This document shows positions 4,110 to 37,957 of a DNA stretch of 61,047 nucleotides, in pieces. The notes beneath the pieces were generated by a model, which was given only the letters and a program-made list of their open reading frames with translations, was not told the DNA's origin and did not search any database. Within the stretch, counting starts at the first letter, position 1, and each line of letters starts with the position of its first letter. The translations under genes were made by a program, and so were the position numbers. This DNA is from a virus (Duplodnaviria; Caudoviricetes): positions 1-61,047 of the IMG/VR virus record IMGVR_UViG_3300028198_000003; one strand, given 5' to 3'.

Positions 4110-4338
4110 CCTAACTTTCTTTTTATTTTTTCAGTTACGTTTATATAGATGGTTATTAGTGGTAATGTATGGTAACAAAAGACATATCAGAACAATACTT
4201 TGATTTTTGTGATAGTGTATATGAGAACTGGAAACTAGCCAGTCAGTCATATTATATCTCATACATCAAACCATACGTCAAATAGACGTCTTTTTTTTTA
4301 TTAGATAGATTTATATAACGTTTGGGTGTAATAATAAC

Positions 4339-4563
4339 ATGATAGGATCAAAACAAATACAAATGATGATGTGTATTGCGTGTCAAAAATTAATCGCTGT
4401 ACATAGTAAACGTGACTTAGGACGCTGCCTATTTCGAGTGCAGGGAACTTTGATAGCCGAAGGCAAAAAACGAGTTGACGGGGACATTGAGAAATACAAA
4501 TCAAAATCCTTACCAGAATTGAATGAAGGCTTTGTAAAACAAGGCGAGGAGAAAATGCAATGA
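4339..4563 (+). CDS. Small Zn-finger-like protein (CIAC..H..C)
   Basis: ORF track; tttatata box upstream. Confidence 0.65.
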   Translation: MIGSKQIQMMMCIACQKLIAVHSKRDLGRCLFRVQGTLIAEGKKRVDGDIEKYKSKSLPELNEGFVKQGEEKMQ

Positions 4564-4772
4564 CTTGGGACTGTGACGAGTGCTATTCGCAAAAACAACT
4601 TTGCGAGGATTGCGAAAGCAAGGACTGTCCTTCATGCAAGAACATTAAAAATTTGCTTTTTAACACAAGCATTATAGCCTACGCATTAGATGATAATAAA
4701 AGTATAACGTGCAACAACGGACATACAATCTTCAAGCCTGAAGAGACTACCACGTTTGGAGTCATGCTGTGA
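4560..4772 (+). CDS. Small Cys-rich protein
   Basis: CDEC, CEDC, CPSC, CNNGH; ATGA overlap with the previous gene. Confidence 0.65.
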   Translation: MTWDCDECYSQKQLCEDCESKDCPSCKNIKNLLFNTSIIAYALDDNKSITCNNGHTIFKPEETTTFGVML

Positions 4773-5001
4773 GGGAATGAAAATGACCAGAACAATAAGA
4801 AAACGTGATACCAAACACCCTACTAGGGACGGTAATCACAACCCTGTATGCAAAGATCCAGATAACTGTGAGGATTGTAAAAATGAATAAAGTAATGACT
4901 GGTACGCCAAGACTTCATCCTTACTGTTTGATATGTAAAGAGTCATACATGGACTTTTGTGTTCTACATCATCATATTAAGGGCAGTTGGGAGATGAGGG
5001 A

Positions 5002-5199
5002 ATGAAACTAACCAAAGACAGATTCACTACATGGGAAGACATAAACGATAATGACTATGAAAAAGAATATGACGATGAGTTAATGATCAAAGTTTATCCA
5101 AACGAATCAAGTGTAGAGATAGCAGATTATATCTTATCGTTACAAGAACAAGTAGACAAGTTAAAAGCGGAATTAGCAAAGCATGAGGGTAAAGCATGA
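5002..5199 (+). CDS. Small acidic protein with C-terminal coiled coil
   Basis: MKLTKDRF start preceded by an SD-like gaggg. Confidence 0.6.
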   Translation: MKLTKDRFTTWEDINDNDYEKEYDDELMIKVYPNESSVEIADYILSLQEQVDKLKAELAKHEGKA

Positions 5200-5275
5200 G
5201 GGAGTGTGTGTGGTGCGTGATAGAACTAAAGTACCAAATGCAACTACCCAACCATACATGTGACGGGAGAAAATA

Positions 5276-5491
5276 ATGGCTTTAATTTGTAAAAACACAT
5301 GCCTAGAGCCTATATATGAACATAGGAAAACTGTAAGGCATATAGCAGAAACAGATTATAAAAAATGCAGCAAGTGCTGTGTATTTATAAAGTGGGAAGG
5401 TATATTTTGTCCTTGTTGTGGCGTACGCCTATCCAATAGAGCAAAGAATAACAAGGCTAGGCAGAGAAGGAATATAAAAATTGTCTTATAG
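5276..5491 (+). CDS. Small Zn-binding protein, CPCC family paralog 3
   Basis: CKNTC...CSKC-FIKWEGIF-CPCCG; clearly similar to 2156-2353. Confidence 0.75.
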   Translation: MALICKNTCLEPIYEHRKTVRHIAETDYKKCSKCCVFIKWEGIFCPCCGVRLSNRAKNNKARQRRNIKIVL

Positions 5492-5984
5492 ACCTGAAGA
5501 AGAAAAAGACTTGGAGGAGGAAGACTATGACTGTTAAACGAAAGACTTTTATATATAAATGAATTAATCATATTATGTATCAAGACAAAAAATTGAGACA
5601 AGATCATTTGGTTGAATTTAAGCGTGTATACGATAGGGTTTCTAAAGAGCCTAATCCTAACGAGTATAGACTTAAAAGGATACAGGAATGTATAAAAAGA
5701 TGTCAAGACTAATTAAGTTCATGACTAGCCTGTTTCATAAACATAATGATAATATTACAGGCATGTGTCATAGTTGTTGGAAGAGTAATGTTACTATTGA
5801 GGATAGGAGATTGATATTATGTCATGGTTGCTGTCAGGCTTCTTAACTGGGCTCAAAAAATCCTTCTCAGGCAGGGATTTTCTTAGAGATATAAATCAAT
5901 GCGTAAAGTGTGGTAAGCCCTCCTTTTTTTCATCGTGCCTAAAATGTGAAGTTGATGATGCTTATAAAGGTTGGAATAAACAAA

Positions 5985-6203
5985 ATGAACGATAAGGTAC
6001 AGCATTTTATAGTAGGCTTGTGCCTAAGTCTTACAGGCGTGTTTTTCTTCCCGTTAATAATAACAGGGTTTATATTTGGTATAGGCAAGGAACTCTACGA
6101 CTATGTTACTGGCAGAGGCGTAGCAGAATGGAAAGATATGTATGCCACTTTTTATGGTGCAGCCCTAGGCTCAGTAATAGTATGGATAGTATTGATACTA
6201 TGA
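5985..6203 (+). CDS. Small membrane protein (DKxxHF...KE..D...D motif, VanZ/YfiM-like)
   Basis: MNDKVQHF start; three hydrophobic segments; GKELYD and WKDMYAT motifs. Confidence 0.6.
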   Translation: MNDKVQHFIVGLCLSLTGVFFFPLIITGFIFGIGKELYDYVTGRGVAEWKDMYATFYGAALGSVIVWIVLIL

Positions 6204-6287
6204 CCAAATGTCCTCGTTGTAAAAAGGTTTATGACTCCCCTTGGCAAGAGTGTTATAAATGTATCGAAACAGTGTACCCCGAAACCT

Positions 6288-6392
6288 GAGCCTATTTGAG
6301 CCTAGTTGTATCCGTATTTTTTTCCGATTGAGTTGTAATTTTTTTCCGATTTCGTATATATAGGTTTCCTAAAATTCGTTTTTTTTCCATAG
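6288..6392. repeat. Short direct repeats and spaced T-tracts (gagccta x2, agttgta x2, tttttttccgatt x2)
   Basis: Directly visible in non-coding DNA. Confidence 0.6.
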
Positions 6393-6439
6393 CCACTAGG
6401 CACGCTATTAACGTTCCTAAACAGTGTGGAAATGTTATA

Positions 6440-6996
6440 TGTCTCGGACGCCTACTAATATTGTAGATTACTACGGCTTCACGCCTACGGGCGTCGGGCA
6501 GTAGTGATTAGCACACACGCCATACCAACTCGGTAGGCGTCTTATAGTTAGCATTGTATAGTGGACGCTCATTAGTAGGCTTACCTAGCCTGTACTAACT
6601 ACGTTCAAAGTTAATCTCAACAAAGATTATTGAGAGAGCACAGCAGTGTGTGAAGCCAATAGTCGAGAGTGTCAACTGAGAGCACCCATTGATAGTATTA
6701 ATGACCTAGAACGCTTAGTGTCGAGTGTGAGTGCCACTGCTCGTGGACGAGAGTGAATGAAGCGAGTAATTCAGAGAATAGACTGGACTCTGTTTATACA
6801 ACGTAGTGATACGACGAAACTGTTGAGAATCTGAACATTTATGACATTGTTCGGTAAATCAAAAATGGACTCCCTTAGTGGATAGAACATTCTCAACAAT
6901 CAAGACGCAAGCAAACTCGGTAGGAAAGGTTAGCAATAACTATAACTATCGAGGGCAAAATCTTTTACTAATACCCCTTTCGTGCCTGCTTTTTTT
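6440..6996 (+). ncRNA. Putative large structured non-coding RNA (RNA-1, ~550 nt), family unknown
   Basis: ORF-free and GC-richer than its flanks. Stems gacgcctac 6447-6455/gtaggcgtc 6533-6541, acgcc-TACG-ggcgt (UNCG loop), actacgtt 6598-6605/aacgtagt 6800-6807, tgttgagaat 6821-6830/attctcaaca 6889-6898. Ends in a T-tract. Confidence 0.6.
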
Positions 6997-7106
6997 AATT
7001 GGCACATTCCCCTAGCACTTGTAGTGATAGAATTAGAAAGGGTTATATACCACGTGCTCGCCCAGTATTCCAACAGAATAACTAGGCATAAGATAGCAAA
7101 CAAAGC

Positions 7107-7727
7107 GTGAGTTTATATAACAATACTTCTATTTCTATTGATTACTCTATGTGTGGGGAAAGAATGGAGTCAACCATTAGTAAATCTAAGATAGTCACAA
7201 ATATGGAAGCCATTAAGAACATAATGACTGACATACATAACGGTGACTCAACTATTATCAAAGGTTATCAAGCGATTGGTGACTATTCCGATAATAAATC
7301 CCCTGATTTTTTCAAAGGTGGTAGGTGTAGTTTCGATATTATTATCGAACCACCGACCGAACGCCTAGACTATTGGTCTTTGGGTGTGTTCGCAACTAGA
7401 AAGGCTATTGATATGCTAGCAATGGCGTGTCAATCCAATTCTGTTGCCTATGATGATATACTTGCTATGTCACATAGAACTGATAGGCACTATCACGGCT
7501 CTGAAGATAACTTCAAAGCTGAGACAGGTTTCTTATCAGCACTCATTACTCAATCAACAAGGCGTGCAAGACATGGTTTTGTATTGAAAACCACCCATTT
7601 CCCTGCCTCGAAAGAGATGATGGATAAGGTGTTTATTACAGTACAAGACGTCTTAGTGCAAGCAATACAAGAAGCTTCTACTTTGTCATTGTACAAACAG
7701 AGAAGATTCATGGAGTCATTATCTTGA
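7107..7727 (+). CDS. Hypothetical protein, first gene of the probable early operon (true start likely ATG 7149 or 7164)
   Basis: ORF track; tttatata box at ~7112. Confidence 0.7.
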   Translation: MSLYNNTSISIDYSMCGERMESTISKSKIVTNMEAIKNIMTDIHNGDSTIIKGYQAIGDYSDNKSPDFFKGGRCSFDIIIEPPTERLDYWSLGVFATRKAIDMLAMACQSNSVAYDDILAMSHRTDRHYHGSEDNFKAETGFLSALITQSTRRARHGFVLKTTHFPASKEMMDKVFITVQDVLVQAIQEASTLSLYKQRRFMESLS

Positions 7728-8758
7728 TAGTGACTGCAACAAAACGAAAGACGGTAAAAGATGACTACGCATACAAACATGTCAACCGTATAGGAGAGGA
7801 AGACGAGGGAGCACACCCTGCTCACCGTAGAGAATCCTCTTCATTTCATGGCGACTCATCAGTAGAGGTGAGTGGTAATGAAGGATACGAATGTGATGGC
7901 GATTGCGATTACGATTGTGATTGTGATGGTTGTCGTGTGTGTGATAACTGTGATACTTCACATGAAGATTGTGAATGTATAGATTGTAAACGTTGTAACG
8001 ACTGTGATAGAAGATTAGATAACTGTAGCTGTTATATAACTTCAGCAGTTGCTGATGATTGTGATGAATGTAGATTCATTCACCCAAGTTGTGCATGTGA
8101 TGAGGAATCAGAAGCATGTGGACAACATCAACGTGACGCATTTGAAGACAACTGTTATACTGACTGTGATAGCACATACCAACATTGTGAAGGCGACTGT
8201 GGTTGTGAGATATATCACGAATGTGGTATGAATGACGACAGTGGTTTAGTTGATGGCGAGATGGTTAGTCCACCATTATTACCTGCCCAGATGGCAGAAT
8301 GGTCTAGAGAAAACTATCCATCAGAAGTTAATACTTCATGTGGTAGTCACCAACATACATCATTCAAACTCATGAAAGACTATTGTATAGCATTAGATAG
8401 AGAATTAGAAACCTATCTAATACAAAGATTAGCCTCATGGGGCAAGAAAAATAATATAAATGCAGGCAGTGCATTGTATAATAGACTTGCAGGCGACAAG
8501 CATTGGTGTAGGAAAGGTTATAGAGGATATGACCAGCTAATTACATCAGAGAAATCAGATTGTAGGTATCAGATAATTAATTACTGCTACCTATTACATG
8601 GCACAGTTGAAGTGCGTGTACTACCAGCATTTGCTCAGGTAGAATTGAATGTATCTGCTCACAAAGAACTTACGAGAGCTATTGAGCAGTTTATAGAAGA
8701 CAACAAAGACTCGTTACAACAACGCAGAAAGACAATAACAATGGAGGTGATGGTCTAA
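7724..8758 (+). CDS. COOH-NH2 ligase (putative amidoligase, Amidoligase_2-like) with large Cys-rich insertion
   Basis: Ordered motifs IGEEDEG (GxExE), HGDSS, GEMVSPP, VNTSCGSHQH, RYQIIN, GTVEVR match the glutamine-synthetase-like amidoligase pattern. Confidence 0.8.
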   Translation: MIVTATKRKTVKDDYAYKHVNRIGEEDEGAHPAHRRESSSFHGDSSVEVSGNEGYECDGDCDYDCDCDGCRVCDNCDTSHEDCECIDCKRCNDCDRRLDNCSCYITSAVADDCDECRFIHPSCACDEESEACGQHQRDAFEDNCYTDCDSTYQHCEGDCGCEIYHECGMNDDSGLVDGEMVSPPLLPAQMAEWSRENYPSEVNTSCGSHQHTSFKLMKDYCIALDRELETYLIQRLASWGKKNNINAGSALYNRLAGDKHWCRKGYRGYDQLITSEKSDCRYQIINYCYLLHGTVEVRVLPAFAQVELNVSAHKELTRAIEQFIEDNKDSLQQRRKTITMEVMV

Positions 8759-8759
8759 A

Positions 8760-9725
8760 ATGTGTGTAATAATATGTATAGAAGATGGTAAATACCCAAG
8801 TAAGTCCACGCTTGAAGACGCAGAAAGTATGAATTGTCATGGTGGTTCAATAGCATGGCTTGATAAGAATGGTAAAAAGTATTACCAAAAAGGTATCAAG
8901 GCTAAAGCAATCACTAAGATAATCAAGAAGCAACTCAAGCCCAAAGGTATTAAGACAGCAATCATTCACTTTAGGATTGCAAGTGTAGGAAATGTTAACA
9001 AGAAACTATGCCACCCGTTTGAGATATCTAATAGAGTTGATCTTAATCTAAGTGGCGAACGCATGACTACTGACTTACTATTCCACAACGGAACATGGTC
9101 AGAGTATGCAGAGGAAATGTTAGAGTTCTTAGGCAAACATAACAAGCCACTAAAAATACCATACGGTGAGTTTAGTGACAGTAGAGTGATGGCATACCTA
9201 GCTAAACGCATGGGTGTCAGAAAGATGGCTAAGAAAGTAACAGGTTGGAATAAGATAGCAGTACTCACGAGTGATGGTATCAAACGATACGGCACAGGTT
9301 GGGTTAACTTCAAAGGTAACAAGTGTAGTAATGATTACTTTGTACCAACATTAACCTCATGGAGTTATGGGGGCATGGGTGACTATAATTTTGGGGATAA
9401 GTCAGGTAGTAAAGAGTATGGTGGTGGCGAGTATCTCAATGATGAAGAAACTCTTGTAGCTGATACATTAAAAAACGTCTACGACGTTACTGATGAAGAA
9501 ATCAATGACTACTTAGCAGGTGGCATGAGTATATTTGATGTTGAAGCTATGTATGAAGCAGCAGAATTAACAGTAGCGTATGAAGATGATGGTCAGATAG
9601 GAATGGAAGAGGAACGATTGATACCTGTTGATACAGATAAACAACTGAGTTATCAAAAGAGATTAGATGAAGAGTGTGCATTGAGTGAAGCGATAGAACA
9701 TACAAGGAGAGGAGCAATATGGTAA
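8760..9725 (+). CDS. Class II (Ntn) glutamine amidotransferase with acidic C-terminal extension
   Basis: N-terminal Met-Cys; NCHGGSIA, IHFRIAS, CHPF, LFHNG, SDSR motifs. Confidence 0.85.
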   Translation: MCVIICIEDGKYPSKSTLEDAESMNCHGGSIAWLDKNGKKYYQKGIKAKAITKIIKKQLKPKGIKTAIIHFRIASVGNVNKKLCHPFEISNRVDLNLSGERMTTDLLFHNGTWSEYAEEMLEFLGKHNKPLKIPYGEFSDSRVMAYLAKRMGVRKMAKKVTGWNKIAVLTSDGIKRYGTGWVNFKGNKCSNDYFVPTLTSWSYGGMGDYNFGDKSGSKEYGGGEYLNDEETLVADTLKNVYDVTDEEINDYLAGGMSIFDVEAMYEAAELTVAYEDDGQIGMEEERLIPVDTDKQLSYQKRLDEECALSEAIEHTRRGAIW

Positions 9726-10003
9726 CTAACATACAATCAATATACCCACAAAGTATGATAAGTAGAACACTATTAAAGGCACACAACAACCAACAAAATA
9801 GTATACTATGTCCGTACTTGGCTATTGCATTGGAAACAAACTTCATTAATGAGGATTACATTAGAATGTTCCCTAGTCAATTTGGTAGAATGTCAATGAG
9901 AAAAATCATAGACCACTTAGGTATGACTGAGTTTAATTCCAATAAGATTTGGCGTATGATTGAAGATGGTTATACTCTTGAACAAATATCGAGGAGTTTT
10001 TAA
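9719..10003 (+). CDS. Hypothetical protein
   Basis: ORF track; SD ggagga upstream. Confidence 0.7.
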   Translation: MVTNIQSIYPQSMISRTLLKAHNNQQNSILCPYLAIALETNFINEDYIRMFPSQFGRMSMRKIIDHLGMTEFNSNKIWRMIEDGYTLEQISRSF

Positions 10004-10106
10004 ATGAAGATGAATAACATAAGAATGATAACATTGCTACATAACTATGGGTATAGTCATAGACAAATTGATAGAATGATAGCATGGAATAAATCAGGAG
10101 TGACTG

Positions 10107-10250
10107 ATGATTGTTAGGTGTTCGCTTTGTGGTATGGAATTACCTATCGAACCACCCAGATTATCTAGGCACAATGAATGGCATCGTAAGGCGTGGGTAC
10201 AGCATAGGAATACTACTAACGGTACTCCTGAATGGTATGTAGTAGATTAA
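10107..10250 (+). CDS. Small C2H2-type Zn finger protein (CSLC...HNEWH)
   Basis: Translated by hand, 47 aa; SD-like ggagtg upstream. Confidence 0.6.
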   Translation: MIVRCSLCGMELPIEPPRLSRHNEWHRKAWVQHRNTTNGTPEWYVVD

Positions 10251-10254
10251 ATAT

Positions 10255-10740
10255 TATATTAAATTGCAATGTAGGTAAAGTATGTAGATACATCATGCCT
10301 ATGTTTATGACAACGGTAGGGTATATTATTTGGGGAAACATATACCCTGCCTACTTTTACCATAGTTCATGACGTGAACCTCTCAGGAGTAAGAACATAA
10401 AGTCATGACCTACTTAACACCCAGAGTTGTACACGACTACTGGGGGGGAGTAGAGTATAGCCCATGTGTAAGTTGAGGAATGGGTTTTACATATTATAGT
10501 TAACTAAGGAGATCTGAAACATCTTGGGAGTGGAACAACGACAGTTGTGTAACAACACTACAAGCGATAACAGTTGCCTTGTTAAACAACGTATTAGGAT
10601 AGGATTAGGAAGATATACTTGAGGTGTCTTACCAACTAAGTTTGGAACCAATGATAGTAATGACCTGATCAACATGCATAGACGTTAGTTAGTACATGGG
10701 CTTCCCATAAGAATAGCATAACTGAGATTAACAACGGTGC
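10255..10740 (+). ncRNA. Putative structured non-coding RNA(s) (RNA-3) inside the early operon
   Basis: ~490-nt gap with no long + strand ORF in a tightly packed operon. Hairpins ggtagggtatat/atataccctgcc, tcatgac/gtcatga, cccag/ctggg. Long-range pairs agcccatgt ~10459/acatgggct ~10694 and taactaa/ttagtta. Confidence 0.55.
10422..10438 (+). promoter_or_regulatory. Conserved motif CAGAGTTGTACACGACT, copy 1
   Basis: Identical 17-mer at 12082-12098; partial copies at 16217-16246. Confidence 0.6.
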
Positions 10741-10743
10741 AAC

Positions 10744-11127
10744 ATGATGAAACATGATAAAGAAACTGTCAAAGACAGGCATATATTTAGTCATCAAGAG
10801 TGTGGCTGTATAAATTGTTACAGGCATACTCGTGACATATTGATTGCTGAATTAGAAAGCCTTTGTATCATTGACGTACAAAAAGACCCCAATATAATGA
10901 GGTTGAGTGAGAAATTTGCTGACGCACTACCAAATAGTGAAAACGCTGACATTCCTCACATATCAAACGAAGATATTTGGGGAACACTGATAATGCGTTT
11001 CAATCAAACTGAACCTGACGCCATTCAAGACTATGGCATAATTATACGAATGGTGATAGATGTTTTGATTGAGACTCACAGAAACAATACTACAAACAAA
11101 CATGGAGGTGATATGTATGGAGTATAA
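10744..11127 (+). CDS. Hypothetical protein (HxxCGCxxC motif)
   Basis: ORF track. Confidence 0.7.
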   Translation: MMKHDKETVKDRHIFSHQECGCINCYRHTRDILIAELESLCIIDVQKDPNIMRLSEKFADALPNSENADIPHISNEDIWGTLIMRFNQTEPDAIQDYGIIIRMVIDVLIETHRNNTTNKHGGDMYGV

Positions 11128-11248
11128 AACAAAAAAACCAACTTACAAACAAGCCAAGAAAGCATACGAAGTATATCAATCAGGTATGAGTAATGGTGGA
11201 GAATTTTGGGATACGTTAGCACAGTATTTCAAAGGAGAAGAAGCATGA
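11117..11248 (+). CDS. Hypothetical 43-aa protein
   Basis: Translated by hand; ggaggtg SD upstream; ATGA overlap with the next gene. Confidence 0.55.
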   Translation: MEYKTKKPTYKQAKKAYEVYQSGMSNGGEFWDTLAQYFKGEEA

Positions 11249-11523
11249 ACCACGAACAATGGGTAAACGCTATCAAATCTAAGAAATCAGTCAGATTTAC
11301 TGAGGAGTTTTTGACTTCATTAACTCAGATTGGTATGGATAAAATAGAACCGTTCAAATATCTTGGAAGCAGTATGACAACAAGAGAAATGCATTTAGTA
11401 GAATGTAAGATGGTTGATTTCTTATCAAACAAACCAACACTAACTAACTCAGAACTATCAGTGTTACAATCATTGTTATGGGACGAGAAGAAGTTTGGTA
11501 TAATGAAAGAGGTGAAAGAATAA
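11245..11523 (+). CDS. Hypothetical protein (start MNHEQW)
   Basis: ORF track, start refined from the overlap and SD. Confidence 0.65.
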   Translation: MNHEQWVNAIKSKKSVRFTEEFLTSLTQIGMDKIEPFKYLGSSMTTREMHLVECKMVDFLSNKPTLTNSELSVLQSLLWDEKKFGIMKEVKE

Positions 11524-11702
11524 TGCAAATACAAAGTTGCAATACAAACACACCTGAAAAGGTATACGAGACTACGTTAGAATCGTGTACCTGTGGTGAC
11601 TGGCGATACAAAAAGTCAGTAACAGGAGAGTTGTGTAAACACCAAAAGATGTTGTGTGATGAAGCCCCACCAACAGTATCAGAAAGAACATGGAGGGAAT
11701 AA
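11523..11702 (+). CDS. SWIM-type Zn finger protein
   Basis: Y-x-T...CTCGDW...CKHQ (CxC..CxH). Confidence 0.7.
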   Translation: MQIQSCNTNTPEKVYETTLESCTCGDWRYKKSVTGELCKHQKMLCDEAPPTVSERTWRE

Positions 11703-11905
11703 TGACTGAGAAATGTTATGTGGTTGTAAGAGATACTGAAATTCTTCAATGTCTTGAAGAATATTACACATTAGATAATAAAGACGAGGCTAATGGTTTC
11801 ATTCTTGGCTTGAAAGTTGCAAGTAAGTATTATAATGACAAACTGGTGAGAGTTGAGGTAAATGAACCAGTAGAACCAGTAGAAGAGGAGATAGACAGAA
11901 CATGA
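11702..11905 (+). CDS. Hypothetical protein with acidic tail
   Basis: ORF track; start MTEKC after SD ggaggg. Confidence 0.6.
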   Translation: MTEKCYVVVRDTEILQCLEEYYTLDNKDEANGFILGLKVASKYYNDKLVRVEVNEPVEPVEEEIDRT

Positions 11906-12075
11906 CTGAGACATTCAAGTGCACCAACTGTGAAGAGTTGTTTAACATTGATGATGAGAATTACAGCAACGAACTTGACAACTCATACTGTGACTCATGC
12001 TGTGATGCAATGGAAGAAGACGAGCATGCGGCAAAGGTTGACCACATGATGGGTGTGATGGAGGACAGGGATTAA

Positions 12076-12135
12076 CATGTGCAGAGTTGTACACGACTGC
12101 TGCACACATACCCACACTGACATACGTGTTAGGTG
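12076..12135 (+). promoter_or_regulatory. Intergenic double hairpin containing motif copy 2
   Basis: tgtgcag-agttg-taca-cgact-g-ctgcaca followed by ccac..ctgaca/tgttag gtgg. Confidence 0.55.
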
Positions 12136-12141
12136 GAAAGT

Positions 12142-12390
12142 ATGACTGATATAACAAAACAAAAGACATGCCCTAACTGTGAAGACCAAGACTGTGAGAT
12201 AGATATGGACTTATGTGAAGGCTGTGAAAGATGTAAAACCTGTTTTGGTACAGGTATACAAGAGTATCAAATAGCAGTAGACGACTTTAAAGAAATGGGT
12301 TGTGAAGACTGTGGATATGATCCTAATGATAGTGACGATGCGTATGACGCATGGAAAGATGATCAACTTACGGAGAGTAAAGATGATTAG
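12142..12390 (+). CDS. Small acidic Cys-rich protein (includes DnaJ-like CxxCxGxG)
   Basis: CPNC, CEGC, CKTCFGTG, CEDCG. Confidence 0.65.
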   Translation: MTDITKQKTCPNCEDQDCEIDMDLCEGCERCKTCFGTGIQEYQIAVDDFKEMGCEDCGYDPNDSDDAYDAWKDDQLTESKDD

Positions 12391-12597
12391 ATACATGTTC
12401 ATGGACATACTTGACATGTCACCTCGTGGTAGATTCCAAGATGAAGATGATGAGGAAGATGAAGATGAGGAAGATGATTGATATGGATAAATGTGTAGAA
12501 TGTGGAAATGAAAAACCAATAGAAGAAATATTATGTTTACATTGTTGGTGTTTACAAAATAATTTTCCTTGTGAATGTAGGGAGGAAGATGAGGAAG

Positions 12598-12807
12598 ATG
12601 AGTAAACATATAGATATTTCTTTACCCAAATATAAATGGGGTAAATGTCATTGTCATGATTGTGATGAAGATGATATTATGTGGCAAAAGTCTAAAGTAT
12701 ACATTCCTTTACCTGATAACGTAAGACCAAAGAGTTCTTTAAAAATGGTTGATGAATTGAGTAGTAATAATCGTACCCACACCAATTATATTGGGTGGAG
12801 AGTATGA
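12598..12807 (+). CDS. Small Cys-rich protein (CHCHDC)
   Basis: Start MSKHID inside ORF 12571-12807. Confidence 0.55.
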   Translation: MSKHIDISLPKYKWGKCHCHDCDEDDIMWQKSKVYIPLPDNVRPKSSLKMVDELSSNNRTHTNYIGWRV

Positions 12808-13748
12808 CAGATACTATGGAAAAACAATTTATCGAGTCCATAAAACCGACTCAAGTAGATCCATCAGCTAGGACATATAAAGTTCCTACTGCTGAGATAG
12901 ATTACACTAACTATCTTCCTACAAAATGGGGAGTGGAATACGTGCAACTATCTGACGAAGCAGATGAACTGGAAGCCTGTCTTTTAAAAGGCATGAACTA
13001 TCTGATTGAAGGAGACAAAGGTTTGGGTAAAACCCAATTAGTACATAACCTATGTTTCAAACATACATTACCAATCGTCCCCATTAATTGTTCTGAAGGA
13101 ACAAAGATAGGAGACTTGATAGGTAGACCTCAGATTAATGAGTTCGGAAGTTACTTCCAACTTGGTGTACTACCAACAGCTATCGAGGTAGCAAATAAAT
13201 CTGAGCATAAGATAGCAGTTTTATACATGGACGAGTTCAATGCAATGCGTCATGAGATACAGAAGGCAACCAACTCTGTGACTGATGATAGAAGATCAAT
13301 CGTTGCAAACGGTACGACATACCGACTCAATAAAGGTGTAAAACTTGCAGTGGTTGCAACAATTAACCCAAGTACCTACGCAGGTGTCAACACATTAACT
13401 GAAGACACTAAGAGTAGATTCATTGGGGCTACGTGGGACTATCCATCTAGTGAAGACATGGAAAGAATTATTAACTGGAGTGGCATACCTGTTGATACGG
13501 TTAAAGAACCAATGTTAACACTCGTACAAAACATTCATAACTTGAGGATCAACGCAGATGTTGAGTACTCATTGTCACCTAGAGATGTGGCACAGTTTAC
13601 TGACTGTTATAGAATGTGGACAGATTCACCACTCAAAAAACCACTTGAAAGAAGTTTGAATAACGCAGTACTTTCAAAGTTTGGTGACACAACACAAAGA
13701 ACATTGATTAAGAAACAGATCATTGAGATATTTGGAGTGACCGTATAA
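12795..13748 (+). CDS. MoxR/CbbQ/CobS-like AAA+ ATPase
   Basis: Walker A GDKGLGKT, DLIG, Walker B LYMDEFN, ATINP..YAG, SRF, SPR motifs. Confidence 0.9.
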   Translation: MESMTDTMEKQFIESIKPTQVDPSARTYKVPTAEIDYTNYLPTKWGVEYVQLSDEADELEACLLKGMNYLIEGDKGLGKTQLVHNLCFKHTLPIVPINCSEGTKIGDLIGRPQINEFGSYFQLGVLPTAIEVANKSEHKIAVLYMDEFNAMRHEIQKATNSVTDDRRSIVANGTTYRLNKGVKLAVVATINPSTYAGVNTLTEDTKSRFIGATWDYPSSEDMERIINWSGIPVDTVKEPMLTLVQNIHNLRINADVEYSLSPRDVAQFTDCYRMWTDSPLKKPLERSLNNAVLSKFGDTTQRTLIKKQIIEIFGVTV

Positions 13749-15551
13749 ATGGTTCTACCATCATCTACTGATGTCACTCTTAATGTCAATGACTTTTTAT
13801 CTGAGCAGGAATATGACAGAAAGAAAGCAGGGATTATATCTCGTGTAGTTAACACGCCTATTGAAGTTGACTATCAAAGAGATCTAAACTGTGCTTACGA
13901 ATTAAATGATAAAGTAACAGGAAAAAGATCAGGGTTCAAAGTTATCAAAGCAAAACCTAAACTAAAAGGTATTGATGGTAACACAGCAATGAATCATGAA
14001 TTGGCACACGTTCTGTTCGATTCATTTGATCCCAAAGCACTTCAAACATTAAAAGACTGGGCATTTCAATGGGGTGCAGAAAACTCAAACGAGTATAGAA
14101 GAGCCTTTAATATATATCATACAGCAATGAATGTGATTGAAGACCAACGCATTGAGTCATTGTGGGGCAAGATATACTTGGGTAACTTTAGAGACTTTCA
14201 AAGAGTGAGAAAGAAGTTAGGTAAAGAACTAACATTCATTGACCACCCATCTGCTGTACTATTGGCAGAGAGATTCTTTAGACCTGACTTGGTAACACCA
14301 AGCAAGTATGCACACGTGGCACCGTTCATACATGATGTTGAAGGTAAGGATCTTAAAGCCACTATGATTGTCATGAATCGTATAAAACAATACCTTGATG
14401 ATAAGATTAAAGACATGGAAAAAGATGCTGAAGAATACAAAGACCAATCTGACAAGTATAACAAATGCAGCAGTGATGTATCAGATTCTTCTGATGAAGA
14501 ACAGAGAGCAAGAAGAGTTAAGGAAAGAGACTTTGAATATGACAAAGTAAAAACGATGAACAAAGAGATATCTAAGGACAATAATCCTGTTCAAATAGAA
14601 AGACGGGCAACACCTAGATTATCAAAACATGCACAAAATGCAGAATCACTGTATGGACTTGAAGATCTTGGAGCAGGAAAATATGAAGAGGCATTGGAGG
14701 AGGAACAAGAAAATGCACAACAAAAACTACAAGCAATCAAACAGAGTATGGAAGGATCAGATATGGTTAAAGTCCCATCATATATTAGAGACAAACCAGT
14801 AGACAAAACAGGTGGATTTAAACCTGTTATTGACAACCATATTGTTGCACAATTTAAAAGATTGTTGCGATCCTTCAAAGAAAAGACGCATGAAGACGCA
14901 AGTGATGAGGGATATGACTTGGACATTGGCGAATACATTAACATGAAAGCCAATGGATATGGTGATTGCTTCATAGAGGACAAAGACACCAATGGTCTAT
15001 CAATAATGTTAAGTATTGATGGCTCAGGTAGTATGAGAGATCACAACCCAATGGTTGCAAACATGGTAGCAACTATGCAAGAAGCAACCAAAGACCAAAA
15101 AGATATAGAAATAAAGACTATGGTTTGGTCGTCAGATCGTACAGGTAATGTAGCGATACAAAGGTATGAATCAGAAGATATTAAATATCTACCCACTCAA
15201 CGAGGTGGATACACACCTACACACTTTGGTATTGAAGCAGGCTCAAGAGAACTTGCAAAGATGAATGGTAGAAGAAAACTATTGATAGTAATTACCGATG
15301 GATTTCCAAACTATCATAACAACGGTACCAAAGTTAGAACAGATGCAACAGTGAGTGCAACAATTAAAGCCTACAAGAAATCAATGAGAACAACACCAAA
15401 CATAGCAATAGTTGGAGTTGGATTCTTAAATGTTGAATACATGAGAAGAATGTTTGGAAACAAATATATATCCTGTAGGTCTATGAAAGAAGTAGGACAC
15501 TTTATGACCACAACACTTAGTAGAGAAATAGTCCGAGTTATGAAACGATAG
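13749..15551 (+). CDS. vWA-domain protein (CobT/NorD-like partner) with N-terminal HExxH
   Basis: HELAH, NVIEDQRIE, MIDAS DGSGS, GYTPT, LIVITDGFP. Confidence 0.9.
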   Translation: MVLPSSTDVTLNVNDFLSEQEYDRKKAGIISRVVNTPIEVDYQRDLNCAYELNDKVTGKRSGFKVIKAKPKLKGIDGNTAMNHELAHVLFDSFDPKALQTLKDWAFQWGAENSNEYRRAFNIYHTAMNVIEDQRIESLWGKIYLGNFRDFQRVRKKLGKELTFIDHPSAVLLAERFFRPDLVTPSKYAHVAPFIHDVEGKDLKATMIVMNRIKQYLDDKIKDMEKDAEEYKDQSDKYNKCSSDVSDSSDEEQRARRVKERDFEYDKVKTMNKEISKDNNPVQIERRATPRLSKHAQNAESLYGLEDLGAGKYEEALEEEQENAQQKLQAIKQSMEGSDMVKVPSYIRDKPVDKTGGFKPVIDNHIVAQFKRLLRSFKEKTHEDASDEGYDLDIGEYINMKANGYGDCFIEDKDTNGLSIMLSIDGSGSMRDHNPMVANMVATMQEATKDQKDIEIKTMVWSSDRTGNVAIQRYESEDIKYLPTQRGGYTPTHFGIEAGSRELAKMNGRRKLLIVITDGFPNYHNNGTKVRTDATVSATIKAYKKSMRTTPNIAIVGVGFLNVEYMRRMFGNKYISCRSMKEVGHFMTTTLSREIVRVMKR

Positions 15552-15565
15552 GAGGTGATAATGAC

Positions 15566-15889
15566 ATGGATAAAATAGAAATCAAAAAACAAGAAGATAG
15601 GTTACGAAAGAAATTAGTAACACAGTTAGGTAACATGCAGTACATGTGGATACCAAAACATAGAATGACTACTGAAGAAATACAAGGGTTAGATCAACTT
15701 GAACTGGAATCACAACATAGAAAACATTCAACTCTATGGGTTGAGTACAAAGTTAAACCAGTAGCACCAGTAGTATGTTTGTCTTGTGGGGTACAAACAG
15801 GTAAGTATGAGAATCACTTACTTAACGACCAAGACAAAATGGAATGGTATAATGATGAGTGCCAAGAATGTATGAGTGATAATTATTAG
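15566..15889 (+). CDS. Hypothetical protein with CxxC pairs
   Basis: ORF track; ggaggtg SD. Confidence 0.7.
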   Translation: MDKIEIKKQEDRLRKKLVTQLGNMQYMWIPKHRMTTEEIQGLDQLELESQHRKHSTLWVEYKVKPVAPVVCLSCGVQTGKYENHLLNDQDKMEWYNDECQECMSDNY

Positions 15890-15905
15890 TCACTCATATT
15901 TTTTT
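15871..15905 (+). terminator. Hairpin plus T-tract closing the + operon
   Basis: tatgagtga-loop-tcactcata followed by T7. Confidence 0.6.
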
Positions 15906-15911
15906 ATATTT

Positions 15912-16265
15912 AATTGCGTCTTGATTGTTGCTCAACAGTTTCGTAGTATCAATTTGTAGGGGCTAATCAGTGTGTGAATTGACACAATCTTAGAAATCTA
16001 AATAAGATGAAAAGATACGGTGACTGATCATCACCAAGCTGGTGTATCTCCTTTATATGAGTTAGAACCTTCGGGTAAAGTACTCTTGTGCTGCTTAGAT
16101 AAAGGAGTTCCCAGTCTTTTAGCTACAGGGATTACATATCCCACATGAACGAGGCGTTTTCAGAATGGGCTTGAGGCTCATTGTAGAACAGGCACGCCTA
16201 CCTACATACAACAAAAAGTTGTACACGAAAATTTGTACACAACTCTATTTGGCAAAATAGGGTTT
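15912..16265 (+). ncRNA. Putative structured non-coding RNA (RNA-2); strand not certain
   Basis: ORF-free. Closing stem tgtagg/cctaca; stems agatac/gtatct, ggtga/tcacc, ctcctttat/ataaaggag, aggcgt/acgcct, aatgggc/gctcatt; acc-TTCG-ggt tetraloop on +. Confidence 0.6.
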
Positions 16266-16309
16266 TTTCTAAGCGAAACGCTTATATTACATTTATGTAT
16301 ATAGCAAAT

Positions 16310-16615
16310 ATGACTAACATATTTGTTTATGGAACTTTATTAGATGATACAGTAAGAGGTAGGGTATTAGGTAAAGATATTAAAGGAAAATCCGATACCT
16401 TAGAGGATTATATCATTGATACTCACAGTGTACTTACAAGTTATCCTACTATTGTACAACAAAACAGAGGATTTGTTAATGGCAAGTATTTTGACGTTGA
16501 CATGGAAGATATTAAGAAATTAGACCGTTATGAAAGTGAATACTATAAAAAAATAGAAGTTAAGTTAAAAAGTGGTGTTGATACTTTGGTATACACTGAA
16601 CGTATTTACATGTAA
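16310..16615 (+). CDS. Gamma-glutamylcyclotransferase (AIG2/GGCT family)
   Basis: IFVYGTL, YP, VNG, LDRYE..Y signature. Confidence 0.9.
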   Translation: MTNIFVYGTLLDDTVRGRVLGKDIKGKSDTLEDYIIDTHSVLTSYPTIVQQNRGFVNGKYFDVDMEDIKKLDRYESEYYKKIEVKLKSGVDTLVYTERIYM

Positions 16616-22881: not shown

Positions 22882-22914
22882 GATACTATATTATAATATA
22901 ACCATTATATAAAT

Positions 22915-31811: not shown

Positions 31812-32164
31812 TAGTAACTCTCCTCAATGGTGAAATTAAAAGTTTGCGTTTGTTCTGATATGACATCAGATGTGTTTCTTAACTCTACTTCCCCTGCCCA
31901 AATACCTGCTTTGGCTGCTGTTATCTCTGTACTACCAAATGTTACAGATACTATTCCACTGGATCTAGTGCCATATACAATGGATTTGTCTATTAAAAGA
32001 GTACCATCTGGTTGCCATACCTTCCATTTGCCTGAATAAAATGTAGTACTATTAGTCAAATCCCTTGCCGTTCCATCAGCGTTCTTAATGGTAAGTTCAA
32101 GCGTAGTAGTACTGCCTACCTTTATGGTAAAAGATGTTGATCTTGGTGTCATATCCATGCTCAT
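31811..32164 (-). CDS. Ig-like (BppU N-terminal-like) virion protein
   Basis: IKVG.T..L.L..ADG...DLT...G.V......AG.W.GEVEL pattern. Confidence 0.6.
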   Translation of the reverse strand: MSMDMTPRSTSFTIKVGSTTTLELTIKNADGTARDLTNSTTFYSGKWKVWQPDGTLLIDKSIVYGTRSSGIVSVTFGSTEITAAKAGIWAGEVELRNTSDVISEQTQTFNFTIEESY

Positions 32165-35100
32165 GTGTCTTCACCCTTTATATCCTGACTTCGTTTATTA
32201 ACTTTCGCATTTTTACTCCTATCATGTACTTCCTGAGAGCCCTTTCTGCTTAGTCTAGTAGTCTTGGATCTGCCTTTGAGGCTAGAGGTTCTGTCTCTTC
32301 TGTTGATTCTTATAGTTCTTCTTACCCTTACAAGTCCATCTCTCAAGTCCTTGATTATTGATTCTACTACCTGAACAGTCTCAGTTATTACTTGTGTAAT
32401 TATGAATAGTCTTGAAATTGGCTCAGATATTCTAATTATACTATTAACAACAATAGATATTACTTTCTTCCTACTTCTAAATGCTAGTATATTAACAGTC
32501 TCAGTTACATTCTTAATACTACCAATTATTGTATTCTTTAATTCAGATATGTTAATTGTATCAGATACTATCTTTGATAAACCTCTTAATCTTGGAATGG
32601 TTTCTGATAATTGTATAGTTTCAGTTATGATTCTGAGTATTTCTCTTGATCTATCTCTGAATGATTGTATGGATATGGTTTCATTTACATGTTTTATCAA
32701 GTCTTTGAGTCTTGAGATTGATTCTGAAATACTTACTGCATCAGTGATTGTTTTTATTACTCCTCTTAATTTGACATTGCCATCACTAATAGATATTGAC
32801 TCAGTAAATGCTCTTGACCAACCTTGTGCAAATGATTCAGATACAGATATGTTTTCAGTTATGATTCTGAGTAGTCCTCTCGCCCTGTCTCTGAATGACT
32901 GTATTGATACTGTCTCATTGATATGTTTTATCAAGTCTTTGAGTCTTGAGACTGTCTCAGATACATTGACGGTATCAGTTATTGTTCTACCTAGTGAACG
33001 TAATGATATTAATCCTGTAGATATATTAACTGTGTTAGATATTATCTTTATGATTTCTTTTAATGTAACTCTGGTTTCTGCTACGTTGACTGTATCAGAT
33101 AAGATTCTACTCAACTCTCTATATAATATATAGACATCTGAGGTTTGAACTGTGTCAGTAATTGTCTTTATTACTCCTCTTGATCTTATTCTTGTTTCAG
33201 ATATACTCATTGATTCAGATATAATTCTTCTGATTACTCTGAGTCTATCTCTAAATGCCAATATGTTTACAGTCTCAGATACTATCTTTCTAATGTCTTT
33301 GAGTTTTGAGATTGATTCAGATATGCTTACTGATTTTGTTATCACTCTGCTCAATATTCTGTAAGTCAATAATGATTCTGCAACATTCATGGTGTTTGTT
33401 ACTACTCTCTTGATTGAAAGTATTCTTGATAATGTTTCAGATATGTTTACAGATTGAGTCAACACTCTTCTCATTGTAAGTAATACCAATGCTTCTTTAT
33501 ACACTGTTTGGAACACATTGTTTTGGAATATGTTCTGGAATATTCCTGATAGGTTAACTGCAACTGTCTCGTTGACACTCTTTATCCAACCCTTGTAGAC
33601 GTTTTCAGATACAGATAACGTGTTGTTGATAATTCTAATTAGTACTCTTAGTCTATCTCTAAATGCCAACACGTTGACTGTCTCGTTGATCAATCTTCTT
33701 AATACTCTTCTTGGTGTCAATGAAGTTACTATCTGTATTGACTCGTTTACATGTTTGGTGTGTGATTTGAGTCTAGTTATTATTTCAGATACGTTGATTG
33801 TATCTGAAACAATCTTTGCAAGTCCTCTGAGTCTTGGTACAGTTTCAGATATGCTTACTGATTTTGTAATCACTCTGCTCAACATTCTTAATCTTGATTT
33901 AGTAGTAGATATGTTGACTTCATCAGTAACTATTCTTCCTAATACTCTGAGTCTAACTCTTACTTCTGTTACACTTACTGTGTCAGATAACACTCTACCT
34001 AACACTCTGTATAACATGTATGAATCTGAGGTTTTAACTGTATCAGTAATTGTCTTTATTACTCCTCTTAATCTTATTCTTGACTCATTCATGTTTACAG
34101 TTTCAGTTACAATTCTTCTGATTACTCTTAATCTGTCTCTAAATACTAGTACATTAACAGTTTCAGATATGGTTCTAGTTAATACACGTAGTCTAACTAT
34201 TGATTCTGATAATTGAATAGTGTTATTCAATATTCTAATCAACACTTTTCTTGGTGTGAATGATGTTGCTATTCGTATTGACTCGTTCACATGCTTGGTG
34301 TGAGATTTGAGTCTAGTTACTATCTCAGATACGCTGACTGTCTCGGATACAATCTTTGCAATTCCTCTGAGTCTTGAAATTGATTCAGATATGCTGACAG
34401 ATTTGGTTATTGTTCTTGTCAAAACTCTGAGTCTTGGGAACGTGGTGGACACACTTACTGACTCAGTGAATGACCTGCTCCAACCCTGTGCGAATGACTC
34501 AGATATAGATGTACTGCTGGTTACTATTCTTCTTAACACTCTTAACACTATGTTTCCATCAGATATGCTTACACTCTCAGTAAATGATCTTGACCATTTC
34601 TTTCCAAATGCTTCTGCTACTTGCACGACATCAGTGATGATTCTTGTTATGGATCTGTTTCTTACTCTAAATGCCAACACGTTGACTGTCTCGTTGACAT
34701 GTTTTATTAGATCTTTAAGTCTTGAAATGTTCTCAGATACAGATAACGTACTGTTGATAATTCTAGTTAGTGCCCTGTATTTTAATACTGATTCAGATAC
34801 ACTCAACGTGTTATTGATGGTTCTTCTCATGCCTCTTATCCTTATAGCCTCTGATATTCCTTGGAACACGTTGTTCTGGAACACGTTTGACTGGAATACC
34901 TTTTTACCTATGTCAACGGTATCGGTAAACACTTTCAACATTACCGTGTATCTTGCGAATGATTCTGATACCTGTATGGTTGATGTTACAACTCTCTTGA
35001 TAGATCTATACCATTTAGAAGCATCTGCAACCTGCATTGATTCTATGAATGATCTAGTTATACCTCTGAGTCTTGGCACTGTCTCAGATATACTAATAGA

Positions 35101-36970: not shown

Positions 36971-37957
36971 CTATAATTCAGTCCAAGTATTGCTCGAAAG
37001 TACGTAGGATTTGTTAGTATCTTTAGCGTAAAATACTGTTCCGTCTTCTACAGTGATTGCAACTGGTACACCTGTATCAATGGATATTAGTCCTTTCCCA
37101 CCCTGTGCATTAGCTTTTCCCTCTCCAATACCTGCTACATAAGATGAATCTGATGCATTTGGAGCTGCTGTTGTAGCACCACTACCATCATTACCTTGAG
37201 TATTAACAGGATTAGTAACTGCATTAGTTACTGTTCCCCCTGTATAACTTGAACCTCCACCACAAGCAACACCACCTGCAATTCCATTAGAACCATAAGC
37301 AGAACCTCCACCATAATAACCTGAACCTCCACCTCCATGAGAATAATTACCTGCACCTGATGAATTACCACCTTGTAATGCACCACCAGCAGTATTACCT
37401 GCACCACCAGCAGATTGTGTTCCACCATAACCTCTTGTTGTACCCCAAGTACCTGATGCAGGTTCTCCATTTCCTCCAGTCGTTCCACCACCTGCTCCTC
37501 CTGAACTTCCACTTTGAGAACCGCTTGAACCACCGCCACCAGCAATTAATATCGAATTAGCATGACTTACACTTGTTGTAAATATACCTGTATATCCTGA
37601 ACCGTATGACAAAGGACTTGTAGCCCAACTTTCTACTGTACCTGCACCTGCATAATTAGAACCACCAAAGTTACCACCTTGTGCACCACCATCTCCAACT
37701 ACAATTTTAATTACATCTCCTGATGAAACTGCAACTGTTCCTGAAACAAATCCTCCAGAACCTCCGCCATTAGCGTATCCACCTGCACCTGCTCCCCACA
37801 TTTTTACAGCGAGACTTGTAATTCCACTTGGCACTGTATATGATTCATCTGCACCTGTAAATGTATATGTATCAATTCCAGAACTATAGATAAATCCTGT
37901 CGATGAAAGTTCAGAGTCAAGTCCAATGACACGATTACCTGCTAACCATTCCACCAT
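36971..37957 (-). CDS. Glycine-rich adhesin/tail appendage protein
   Basis: WGAGAGG and AGGGG tracts; shared N- and C-terminal motifs with its neighbours. Confidence 0.75.
   Translation of the reverse strand: MVEWLAGNRVIGLDSELSSTGFIYSSGIDTYTFTGADESYTVPSGITSLAVKMWGAGAGGYANGGGSGGFVSGTVAVSSGDVIKIVVGDGGAQGGNFGGSNYAGAGTVESWATSPLSYGSGYTGIFTTSVSHANSILIAGGGGSSGSQSGSSGGAGGGTTGGNGEPASGTWGTTRGYGGTQSAGGAGNTAGGALQGGNSSGAGNYSHGGGGSGYYGGGSAYGSNGIAGGVACGGGSSYTGGTVTNAVTNPVNTQGNDGSGATTAAPNASDSSYVAGIGEGKANAQGGKGLISIDTGVPVAITVEDGTVFYAKDTNKSYVLSSNTWTEL

Follow-up and report, generated by a model that had tools for sequence, protein, structure and literature searches.

A probable large structured non-coding RNA with an invariant internal loop in its signature hairpin, in marine archaeal head-tailed viruses

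The window analysed here is the whole 61,047-nucleotide (nt) stretch of IMG/VR record IMGVR_UViG_3300028198_000003. An initial annotation of this DNA, made from its letters alone, proposed that positions 6440-6996 encode a large structured non-coding RNA (ncRNA) of no known class. That core inference was upheld by Rfam searches, folding statistics, covariation, RNA libraries and the position of the locus relative to the genome termini, and we consider it very likely that 6440-6996 is a genuine structured ncRNA. The locus is structured and non-coding on the + strand, has no conserved open reading frame (ORF), and is present in the RNA libraries of several studies. It appears to represent an RNA family that was not previously described, found in a clade of marine archaeal head-tailed viruses. 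The RNA would be ~535 nt long up to a T7 tract and possibly ~600 nt long with read-through.

Folding, the signature hairpin and RNA-library evidence

The region had been described as the longest ORF-free stretch of the genome. This holds for ORFs of at least 50 aa (6290-6929) or at least 60 aa (6290-7106), but at a threshold of at least 80 aa the stretch 4110-5355 is longer; the ORFs that overlap 6440-6996 are only 33-57 aa. As had also been claimed, the element is GC-richer than its flanks (0.41-0.465 in 6400-6899, against 0.30-0.40 beside it and ~0.35 genome-wide) and ends in a T-tract, which is present as T7 at 6990-6996. Its placement at the head of the early region was mistaken, the element lying ~3 kb inside a + strand gene block.

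Folding energies were compared with those of dinucleotide shuffles and expressed as z-scores. On the + strand, 6440-6996 scored -2.49 (1 of 100 shuffles folding as well), 6465-7000 scored -3.34 (0 of 100) and 6482-7064 scored -2.76 (1 of 100); the - strand of 6440-6996 scored -1.71 (6 of 100). Folding in excess of shuffled sequence was also found in five of six related loci (labelled L throughout), with z-scores of -3.26 in L144, -5.0 and -5.14 in L086, -5.3 and -3.53 in L087, -2.23 in L089 and -2.06 in L167.

The clearest sign of selection on structure is a signature hairpin, HP-A (6916-6953, + strand), which covaries in 11 distinct sequences. Its outer stem (6916-6923/6946-6953, CUCGGUAG/CUAUCGAG) is followed by an invariant symmetric internal loop (GAAA 6924-6927 opposite AUAA 6942-6945), an inner stem (6928-6932/6937-6941, GGUUA/UAACU) and a terminal GCAA loop (6933-6936). 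Across the 11 distinct sequences, pairing is kept in 82.7% of 173 cells, compared with 28-42% when the partners are slid, and both sides have changed in 9 of the 16 pairs (25 cells); 0 of 500 shuffles reached any of five measures. Free variation is seen in the inner stem and the lower outer stem (one pair occurs as CG, UA, GC and AU) and also in the terminal loop. The fixed parts are the top five pairs, GGUAG/CURUC, and the letters of the internal loop, with 11 invariant columns in and around that loop. One pair is G.U in 10 of the 11 sequences; the pair next to it is U-A in five sequences and U.G in another five. In all, 29 cells are wobble pairs, and when HP-A is read as the - strand its pairing drops to 69.4%. 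Because of the G.U pairs and the loss of pairing on the opposite strand, we assign the constraint to a + strand RNA. The hairpin of the window thus shows the combination that we propose as the mark of the family: a GGUAG/CURUC helix with G.U as its second pair, a GAAA/AUAA loop, and covarying inner and outer stems. The HP-A model R1 gives the window 67.9 bits and family members at least 38.9 bits, against at most 34.8 bits for matches to the pattern only.

The internal loop has what we take to be the signature of a UAA/GAN internal-loop motif, in which 5'-UAA-3' stands opposite 5'-GAN-3' beside a Watson-Crick pair and forms a cross-strand A stack. UAA at 6943-6945 is invariant in 11 of 11 sequences and GAA at 6924-6926 lies opposite, beside the G6923-C6946 pair, a signature at the level of sequence only. 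A kink-turn or L7Ae site at HP-A was considered and rejected: kink-turns consist of tandem sheared G.A pairs beside a 3-nt bulge, and by eye the 3' loop strand, AUAA, lacks the G that a second G.A pair would require. Neither the RUGAUGA/CUGA pairing of box C/D RNAs nor a conserved ACA after the hairpin, as in H/ACA RNAs, was seen by eye, and Rfam gave no match of small nucleolar RNA type. As a separate observation, the terminator hairpins of L089 (~1228-1290, - strand), L086 (~1222-1290, - strand) and L087 (~1240-1290, - strand) repeat the HP-A helix, GGUAG/CU(A/G)(U/C)C, as judged by eye, and some family members may therefore carry two copies of the recognition helix.

The body of the RNA was compared with its nearest relative, L144, which is 64-96% identical over most of the region and 40-58% identical over the first 100 nt, with indels scattered along the region. 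The consensus fold of the two sequences has 145 pairs, 11 of them compensatory, compared with 0-1 in six slid controls. Compensatory pairs occur, all on the + strand, in a GC-rich 5' hairpin at 6477-6511 (6477-6488 with 6493-6511; three pairs), a hairpin at 6517-6526/6532-6540 (three), the long-range helix 6560-6571/6728-6738 that closes a central domain at 6560-6738 (two), a short helix at 6802-6804/6811-6813 (one), the helix 6821-6830/6889-6898 (one) and the inner hairpin of the domain that it encloses, 6831-6837/6848-6854 (one). The hairpins predicted within the central domain (6575-6593, 6603-6683 and 6703-6722, + strand) show one-sided or no variation. Short family members are predicted to fold as a series of extended stem-loops in which HP-A comes second to last and a terminator hairpin last. 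We infer that the RNA is a chain of stem-loop domains whose length and sequence are free to change. Three other pairings were set aside. A helix joining the 5' and 3' ends (~6489-6514/7054-7063) and the pairings 6739-6746/7050-7057 and 6747-6753/6977-6983 are invariant between the window and L144, and more distant relatives speak neither for nor against them; all three compete with HP-C, a downstream hairpin described below.

Three helices had been drawn in the initial annotation. All exist as inverted repeats, and only the third, 6821-6830/6889-6898, is kept through compensatory change in L144. When the alignment was read by eye, 6447-6455/6533-6541 had no complement in L144 and was replaced by the local hairpin 6517-6526/6532-6540; its 5' arm also lies upstream of the likely RNA start. 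The helix 6598-6605/6800-6807 was broken in L144 in the same reading. An 11-nt repeat is indeed present as exact copies at 6527 and 6914 but is not conserved, its first copy, held in the loop and 3' arm of hairpin 6517-6540, differing at 4 of 11 positions in L144. Since 84 of 2000 first-order Markov simulations of the region produced an 11-nt direct repeat, this one is only mildly unusual. Two of the three helices and the repeat carry no weight as evidence.

No Rfam 15 model, including GOLLD, ROOL, HEARO, OLE and IMES, matched anywhere in the window at gathering scores. The statement that the element matches neither RNase P, nor the signal recognition particle RNA, nor group I or II introns was likewise confirmed, there being no match to any Rfam model, transfer-messenger RNA (tmRNA) and small ribozymes included. 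At E <= 10, the interval 6200-7200 gave only CRISPR-DR45 on the - strand (20.8 bits against a threshold of 37, E = 1), a chance match, and nine homologous loci gave no Rfam match at E <= 5. ARAGORN found no tRNA and no tmRNA genes.

Sequence from the locus recurs in public RNA libraries. Of 24 listed public-run rows, 20 hold at least half of the sampled words of 6290-7110; these rows include six metatranscriptomes from five studies, two of them small runs of 7-8 million letters. Alignment of four RNA runs, which come from four studies, recovered contigs over the stretch in every one. The contigs, none of which shows its strand, are X12 (6482-7064, 584 nt), X17 (6489-7058), X20 (6548-7037, continuing upstream in variant form) and X18 (6568-7647, with adapter letters at its start). 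At both ends X12 and X17 stop no more than 7 nt apart and without a loose end, which counts as a weak hint. A circular RNA is unlikely, as these two independent contigs are colinear and have the same ends. Substitutions in the contigs respect the predicted fold. In X12 and X18, 6830 T>C accompanies 6889 A>G and 6835 A>G accompanies 6850 T>C; a change at 6829 (A>G) gives a G.U pair, and the X17 variant 6529 C>T falls in the loop of hairpin 6517-6540. All 10 substitutions listed for 6482-7064 are compensatory, wobble-forming, in a loop or unpaired, and 0 of 10 break a predicted helix. No contig covered 6072-6473 in any of the four runs or 7144-7545 in three of them; this was not counted as silence and was not used.

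Family members and transcription signals

A portal-protein search of IMG/VR gave 324 relatives, of which 80 loci were kept. The best-conserved part of the region in these relatives is the non-coding block just upstream of the RNA (6300-6440), which blastn and nhmmer found in 12 distinct loci. Relatives that reach far enough share a syntenic layout in which this block is followed by an ORF-poor gap of ~450-900 nt and then by a conserved protein of 190-220 aa. As a further mark of the family we propose ~330-650 nt of ORF-poor sequence between the conserved TATA-bearing block and an oligo-T run, upstream of the 190-220-aa protein, and the window has this layout. An alignment of nine regions contained one island, corresponding to 6913-6957 of the window, that is conserved in seven of the nine, and this island was searched as a degenerate motif in three collections. 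IMG/VR yielded 10 pattern matches, six of which were judged members, and metagenome contigs yielded 94, of which 15 were judged members; the 52 pattern matches in 185,579 species genomes included none with the family stems and context. HP-A is carried by seven of the nine portal-relative loci that hold the whole syntenic region. Covariation was found in homologues from marine viral and metagenome contigs. Three related contigs of 48-63 kb carry the locus away from their ends, which excludes a terminal element.

In two more distant relatives the conserved block is followed by something else: L050 (~4400-4900, - strand) has ORFs of 167 and 186 aa instead of the RNA, and L030 (~5900-6800, - strand) has a different ORF-poor stretch of ~900 nt. 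The site looks like a hot spot for exchange. L087 and L167 have their flanks and HP-A in common and bodies that are unrelated.

Several candidates and searches did not extend the family. L088, L092, L093 and L094 from the viral scan were excluded as they are without the outer stem, and L098, L100, L126, L172 and L178 from the metagenome scan were excluded with R1 scores of 23.8-34.8 bits, which come from the searched motif alone. Three Bacteroidota-type matches and L179 had no Rfam match. A search with a 19-nt upstream motif returned only three contigs that were already known, single-protein searches of IMG/VR with two downstream proteins returned no relatives, and a four-protein alignment found one already known contig only, a nine-protein alignment being too diverse to serve as a query. 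A blastn search of 6200-7200 against 50,697 phage records gave no match. In 151 Nitrososphaeria genomes R1 had two chance-level matches (E 0.007-0.01), both to the same unrelated sequence, which we took as coding and which matches no Rfam family. The RNA itself gave only chance-level matches of 20-35 nt in 8 of 401 Nitrososphaeria genomes (E 0.006-0.01).

Because the virus is archaeal, as its gene content described below indicates, we read the signals around the RNA as TATA boxes and oligo-T runs, which are the signals of archaeal transcription. For the same reason a scan of 5800-7400 for bacterial promoters and terminators is uninformative; it returned three promoter-like sites, all on the - strand (4.4 expected), and one terminator-like site, also on the - strand.

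The conserved upstream block (6290-6432, + strand) is nearly invariant in four close sequences and better conserved than the flanking genes. It holds exact 14-nt T-rich direct repeats at 6316-6329 and 6338-6351, 22 nt apart, a strong TATA-like box at 6355-6362, a conserved stretch of ~45 nt, and a T8 run at ~6379-6386; a third element, T8-CC, resembles the repeats. The repeats and elements of the block look like binding sites for a shared regulator, and the block would act as a promoter or as a regulator's site. For the RNA itself, the proposed promoter is a TATA-like box, TTATATG, at 6434-6440 (+ strand), present in most of nine aligned relatives and not in L030; a second AT-rich box lies at 6456-6462. 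A related TATA heptamer occurs 17-30 nt before six ATG starts, at 4311, 7113 and 24217 on the + strand and at 22906, 24218 and 53229 on the - strand. This spacing suggests leaderless mRNAs, and it fits archaeal promoters that give rise to them. Transcription of the RNA would then start ~22-25 nt after the 6434-6440 box, near 6462-6465, giving a proposed primary transcript of ~535 nt (6462-6996) with putative ends, which folding and covariation support and whose strand is fixed by G.U pairs. The proposed oligo-T terminator is the T7 tract (+ strand). In 10 of 12 distinct homologues HP-A is followed, at a distance of 30-64 nt, by a T-run of at least five. The RNA thus appears to have its own promoter and oligo-T terminator and mostly to end there.

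Two further TATA-like boxes, at 7043-7049 and 7113-7119 (+ strand, ~70 nt apart), are conserved in 12 sequences. Together with HP-C (~7055-7098, + strand), a conserved hairpin between them with weak covariation (3 of 11 pairs compensatory in six sequences), they precede the next gene, whose ATG is at 7149 or 7164. HP-C might form the 3' end of a longer RNA. The arrangement of a box, 70 conserved nt and a second box is the same here, at 7043-7119, as before the RNA, at 6355-6440. By eye, a TTGTA element placed ~20 nt ahead of a TATA box occurs again at 7023-7049.

Competing explanations and a possible role

Several points weigh against the view that 6440-6996 encodes a discrete structured ncRNA. 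The four RNA runs were chosen for holding the stretch, their contigs show neither strand, true ends nor level, and the libraries may contain DNA. The contigs pass the T7 tract by 60-70 nt, X18 entering the next gene; because they run through it, termination at T7 is at best partial or the RNA is longer, and the unit is possibly longer or partly co-transcribed. The window/L144 structure was derived from the same two sequences on which it was tested, and most body helices rest on this single pairwise comparison. Across subgroups the body is unalignable and the distance between the promoter block and HP-A varies from 268 to 530 nt, with family-wide constraint demonstrated for only ~50 nt. L090 is an exception to the folding result (z = +0.30, 21 of 30 shuffles folding as well). 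Finally, the family is small, with 12 distinct versions of HP-A, including that of L018, which has a variant motif.

Among alternatives, the element could be a cis-acting leader or attenuator, in which termination at the T-tract is conditional: leaders that terminate would accumulate, and read-through would supply the operon at 7149-9725 and beyond. Such an arrangement would fit the RNA contigs that pass T7, X18 joining 6568-7647 across the next gene, and the fact that the RNA is always directly upstream of the same conserved ~190-220-aa protein. Nevertheless, we regard it as unlikely. Two conserved TATA-like boxes stand between the T-tract and this gene, the second 30 nt before the ATG, which suggests that the downstream gene has its own promoter. 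A leader that senses a ligand or factor would also be expected to preserve the core with which it does so, yet bodies of different subgroups cannot be aligned, and no riboswitch family matches. Equally unlikely, in our estimate, is a replication-origin transcript, for which the model would be ColE1 RNA II, a structured ~550-nt RNA that primes DNA synthesis. The non-coding region would then be the viral origin and the RNA would activate or prime it. The virus does encode its own MCM helicase, T-rich direct repeats recur in phase in the upstream block, 22 nt apart, and no non-coding stretch is larger at the 50- and 60-aa thresholds. However, the RNA contains no AT-rich unwinding element; no part of the genome is richer in GC. 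GC skew tracks the orientation of the genes and does not switch here, and the MCM gene is on the opposite strand, 12 kb distant. Nothing at the locus demands constraint at the level of DNA, and the conserved G.U pairs argue for selection on an RNA fold.

It is also conceivable, if quite improbable, that only the 3' end matters, HP-A, the terminator hairpin and the T-tract forming a transcript-end or stability module and the body being a functionless, fast-evolving spacer or recombination scar. Family-wide conservation is confined to HP-A and the terminator region, bodies can be wholly different where the flanks align (L087 and L167), L090 has no excess folding, and L050 has ORFs at this place, all of which would be expected of such a module. 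A functionless body is harder to reconcile with the observation that five of six unrelated bodies fold at z-scores of -2.1 to -5.3, that all bodies of relatives have a GC content of 0.42-0.45 compared with ~0.35 genome-wide, that body helices keep their pairing through 11 compensatory changes, and that a dedicated TATA box lies directly before the body. A precursor cut into small guide-like or regulatory RNAs would account for the predicted chain of separate stem-loops, and a variable body with a constant 3' handle recalls guide RNAs. We think this very unlikely, since RNA contigs cover the whole unit in one piece in two runs, neither box C/D or H/ACA elements (by eye) nor Rfam matches were found, and complementarity to 401 Nitrososphaeria genomes does not exceed chance. 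Least probable is an unrecognised protein-coding region made of small ORFs or some other reading: overlapping short ORFs of 33-57 aa exist, but indels relative to L144 interrupt the region, changes are paired across helices and not codon-periodic, and length varies two-fold between relatives.

If the element is a genuine structured ncRNA, a trans-acting ribonucleoprotein or decoy is, by analogy with known RNAs, a serious possibility that falls somewhat short of probable. Its more specific form, an abundant trans-acting scaffold or decoy recognised via HP-A, is our preferred reading, put forward tentatively. The RNA would act in trans as an abundant scaffold or decoy, HP-A would either be recognised specifically by a protein of the host or the virus or serve as a docking module in a tertiary or RNA-RNA contact, and the variable body would supply bulk, stability or strain-specific contacts. 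HP-A is proposed as the binding or docking site because its invariant helix letters, including the G.U pair, beside a purine-rich loop resemble protein sites and tertiary-contact modules. Counting against this mechanism, it rests on analogy. In its fullest form, which we offer as tentatively as the mechanism itself, this would be the first class of large structured ncRNA in archaeal viruses: independently transcribed, abundant, ~0.35-0.65 kb long, with a hypervariable folded body and an invariant UAA/GAN-type hairpin that docks either with a machine of the host or with further copies of the RNA, and hence a host-takeover decoy or a self-assembling scaffold. A self-assembling scaffold role is now proposed for ROOL and GOLLD.

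An RNA that is new and apparently abundant, in marine archaeal viruses that form a widespread group, would bring an RNA layer into the biology of archaeal viruses and their hosts, and it may explain unassigned reads in ocean metatranscriptomes. The 38-nt hairpin with its invariant loop is a compact, testable handle, and the unusual combination of a variable body with a constant hairpin invites structural work.

The virus, its genes and comparison with known systems

The IMG/VR record is linear, with an estimated completeness of 98%. It encodes a portal, a large terminase (Terminase_6N/6C), a tail tube protein, an MCM helicase (PF00493, E = 6.6e-73) and a Rad51/RadA recombinase (E = 1.7e-53), and a gene for a CobS-like AAA_5 ATPase adjoins that of a VWA protein. 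Among 50,697 deposited phage records, all eight portal matches are to Haloarcula tailed viruses, at 23.5-24.6% identity. By its gene content, the window is an archaeal head-tailed virus and not a bacterial phage. According to sections of PMC7678222, the informally named 'marthaviruses' are putative head-tailed viruses of marine Thaumarchaeota for which radA, ATPases and cobS are typical; they are distinct from the ICTV genus Marthavirus, which comprises Arthrobacter phages. The RadA, MCM, CobS-like AAA_5 ATPase and VWA proteins of the window are marthavirus-type, and judging from these genes the virus is probably marthavirus-like. Two comparisons with Nitrososphaeria did not discriminate between hosts: RadA is only 32-42% identical to Nitrososphaeria RadA over full-length matches (97 of 101 genomes), and in 41 Nitrososphaeria genomes nothing matched the CobS-like protein at E <= 1e-20. 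No family B DNA polymerase was found among 53 scanned ORFs, in which respect magroviruses differ.

The neighbouring genes give no clue to the role of the RNA. Upstream, a 28-aa ORF (6203-6289, + strand) stops immediately ahead of the conserved block; it has two CxxC pairs and is zinc-ribbon-like, and a cysteine-rich small ORF is in the same place in all relatives examined. The protein encoded next downstream of the RNA has no family match. An auxiliary gene cluster follows (7724-16615, + strand), including amidoligase-like, CobS-like AAA_5 ATPase, VWA and gamma-glutamyl cyclotransferase (GGACT) proteins and a weak GATase_6 match; the 344-aa protein is at best amidoligase-like, with an Atlas lead of 0.89 only. 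Elsewhere in the genome, a 1599-aa ORF (32161-36960, - strand) has no Pfam match and is made up of numerous diverged repeats whose period is 60 nt or a multiple of 60 nt (units of 20 aa), and its product is probably a fibre or decoration protein. Glycine-rich proteins with ALK_LTK_GRD and Gly_rich_2 domains (36971-37957 and 40040-41656, - strand), encoded near a Laminin_G_3 protein, are likely tail fibre or host-recognition proteins.

To our knowledge, no large structured ncRNA has been described in archaeal viruses. A literature search found no such RNA; the original marthavirus and 2009 marine small-RNA papers were outside its scope. In the portions of a preprint on the virome of ammonia-oxidizing archaea (AOA) that the search covered, the terms 'non-coding' and 'ncRNA' are absent. 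The context literature comprised parts of this preprint and of PMC7678222, PMC5069720, PMC5434244 and PMC12451628.

Comparison with known systems places the RNA near several precedents without assigning it to any. It resembles ColE1 RNA II as a structured ~550-nt non-coding transcript in the main non-coding region of a replicon, but in the window neither an RNA-DNA hybrid nor an antisense partner nor an origin is in evidence. The adenovirus VA RNAs and the EBERs of Epstein-Barr virus are likewise highly expressed and structured, with a dedicated promoter, an oligo-T terminator and a protein-binding stem beside variable parts; they belong to another domain of life with other transcription machinery, and the window RNA is ~3-4 times longer. 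Phage phi29 pRNA, which is part of a ribonucleoprotein, also keeps its secondary structure as its sequence drifts and has its own promoter. In contrast to pRNA, the RNA described here is about three times longer, has no match in an Rfam library that includes a pRNA model, and lies among early or auxiliary genes, not packaging genes, in a virus with an ordinary large terminase.

The analogy with GOLLD and ROOL drawn in the initial annotation is apt as a likeness in kind, and fails as membership of the same family. Like them, the RNA is a several-hundred-nt, intricately folded ncRNA of a prokaryotic virus, without a known enzymatic role and found by comparative analysis. Here, however, there is no covariance-model match, the virus is archaeal, the body is not conserved, no tRNA genes lie nearby, and the RNA is smaller than GOLLD. 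Among archaeal RNAs, the portions of PMC5069720 that we drew on report Tan1, an abundant 229-nt ncRNA of marine group II archaea found in a metatranscriptome. By that description, Tan1 is similarly a structured ncRNA from uncultured marine archaea with high RNA abundance and few homologues, but it is cellular and shorter (PMC5069720, in part). Taken together, these comparisons indicate that large structured ncRNAs of prokaryotic viruses have precedents as a kind, and that this family, and the presence of such an RNA in archaeal viruses, appear to be new.

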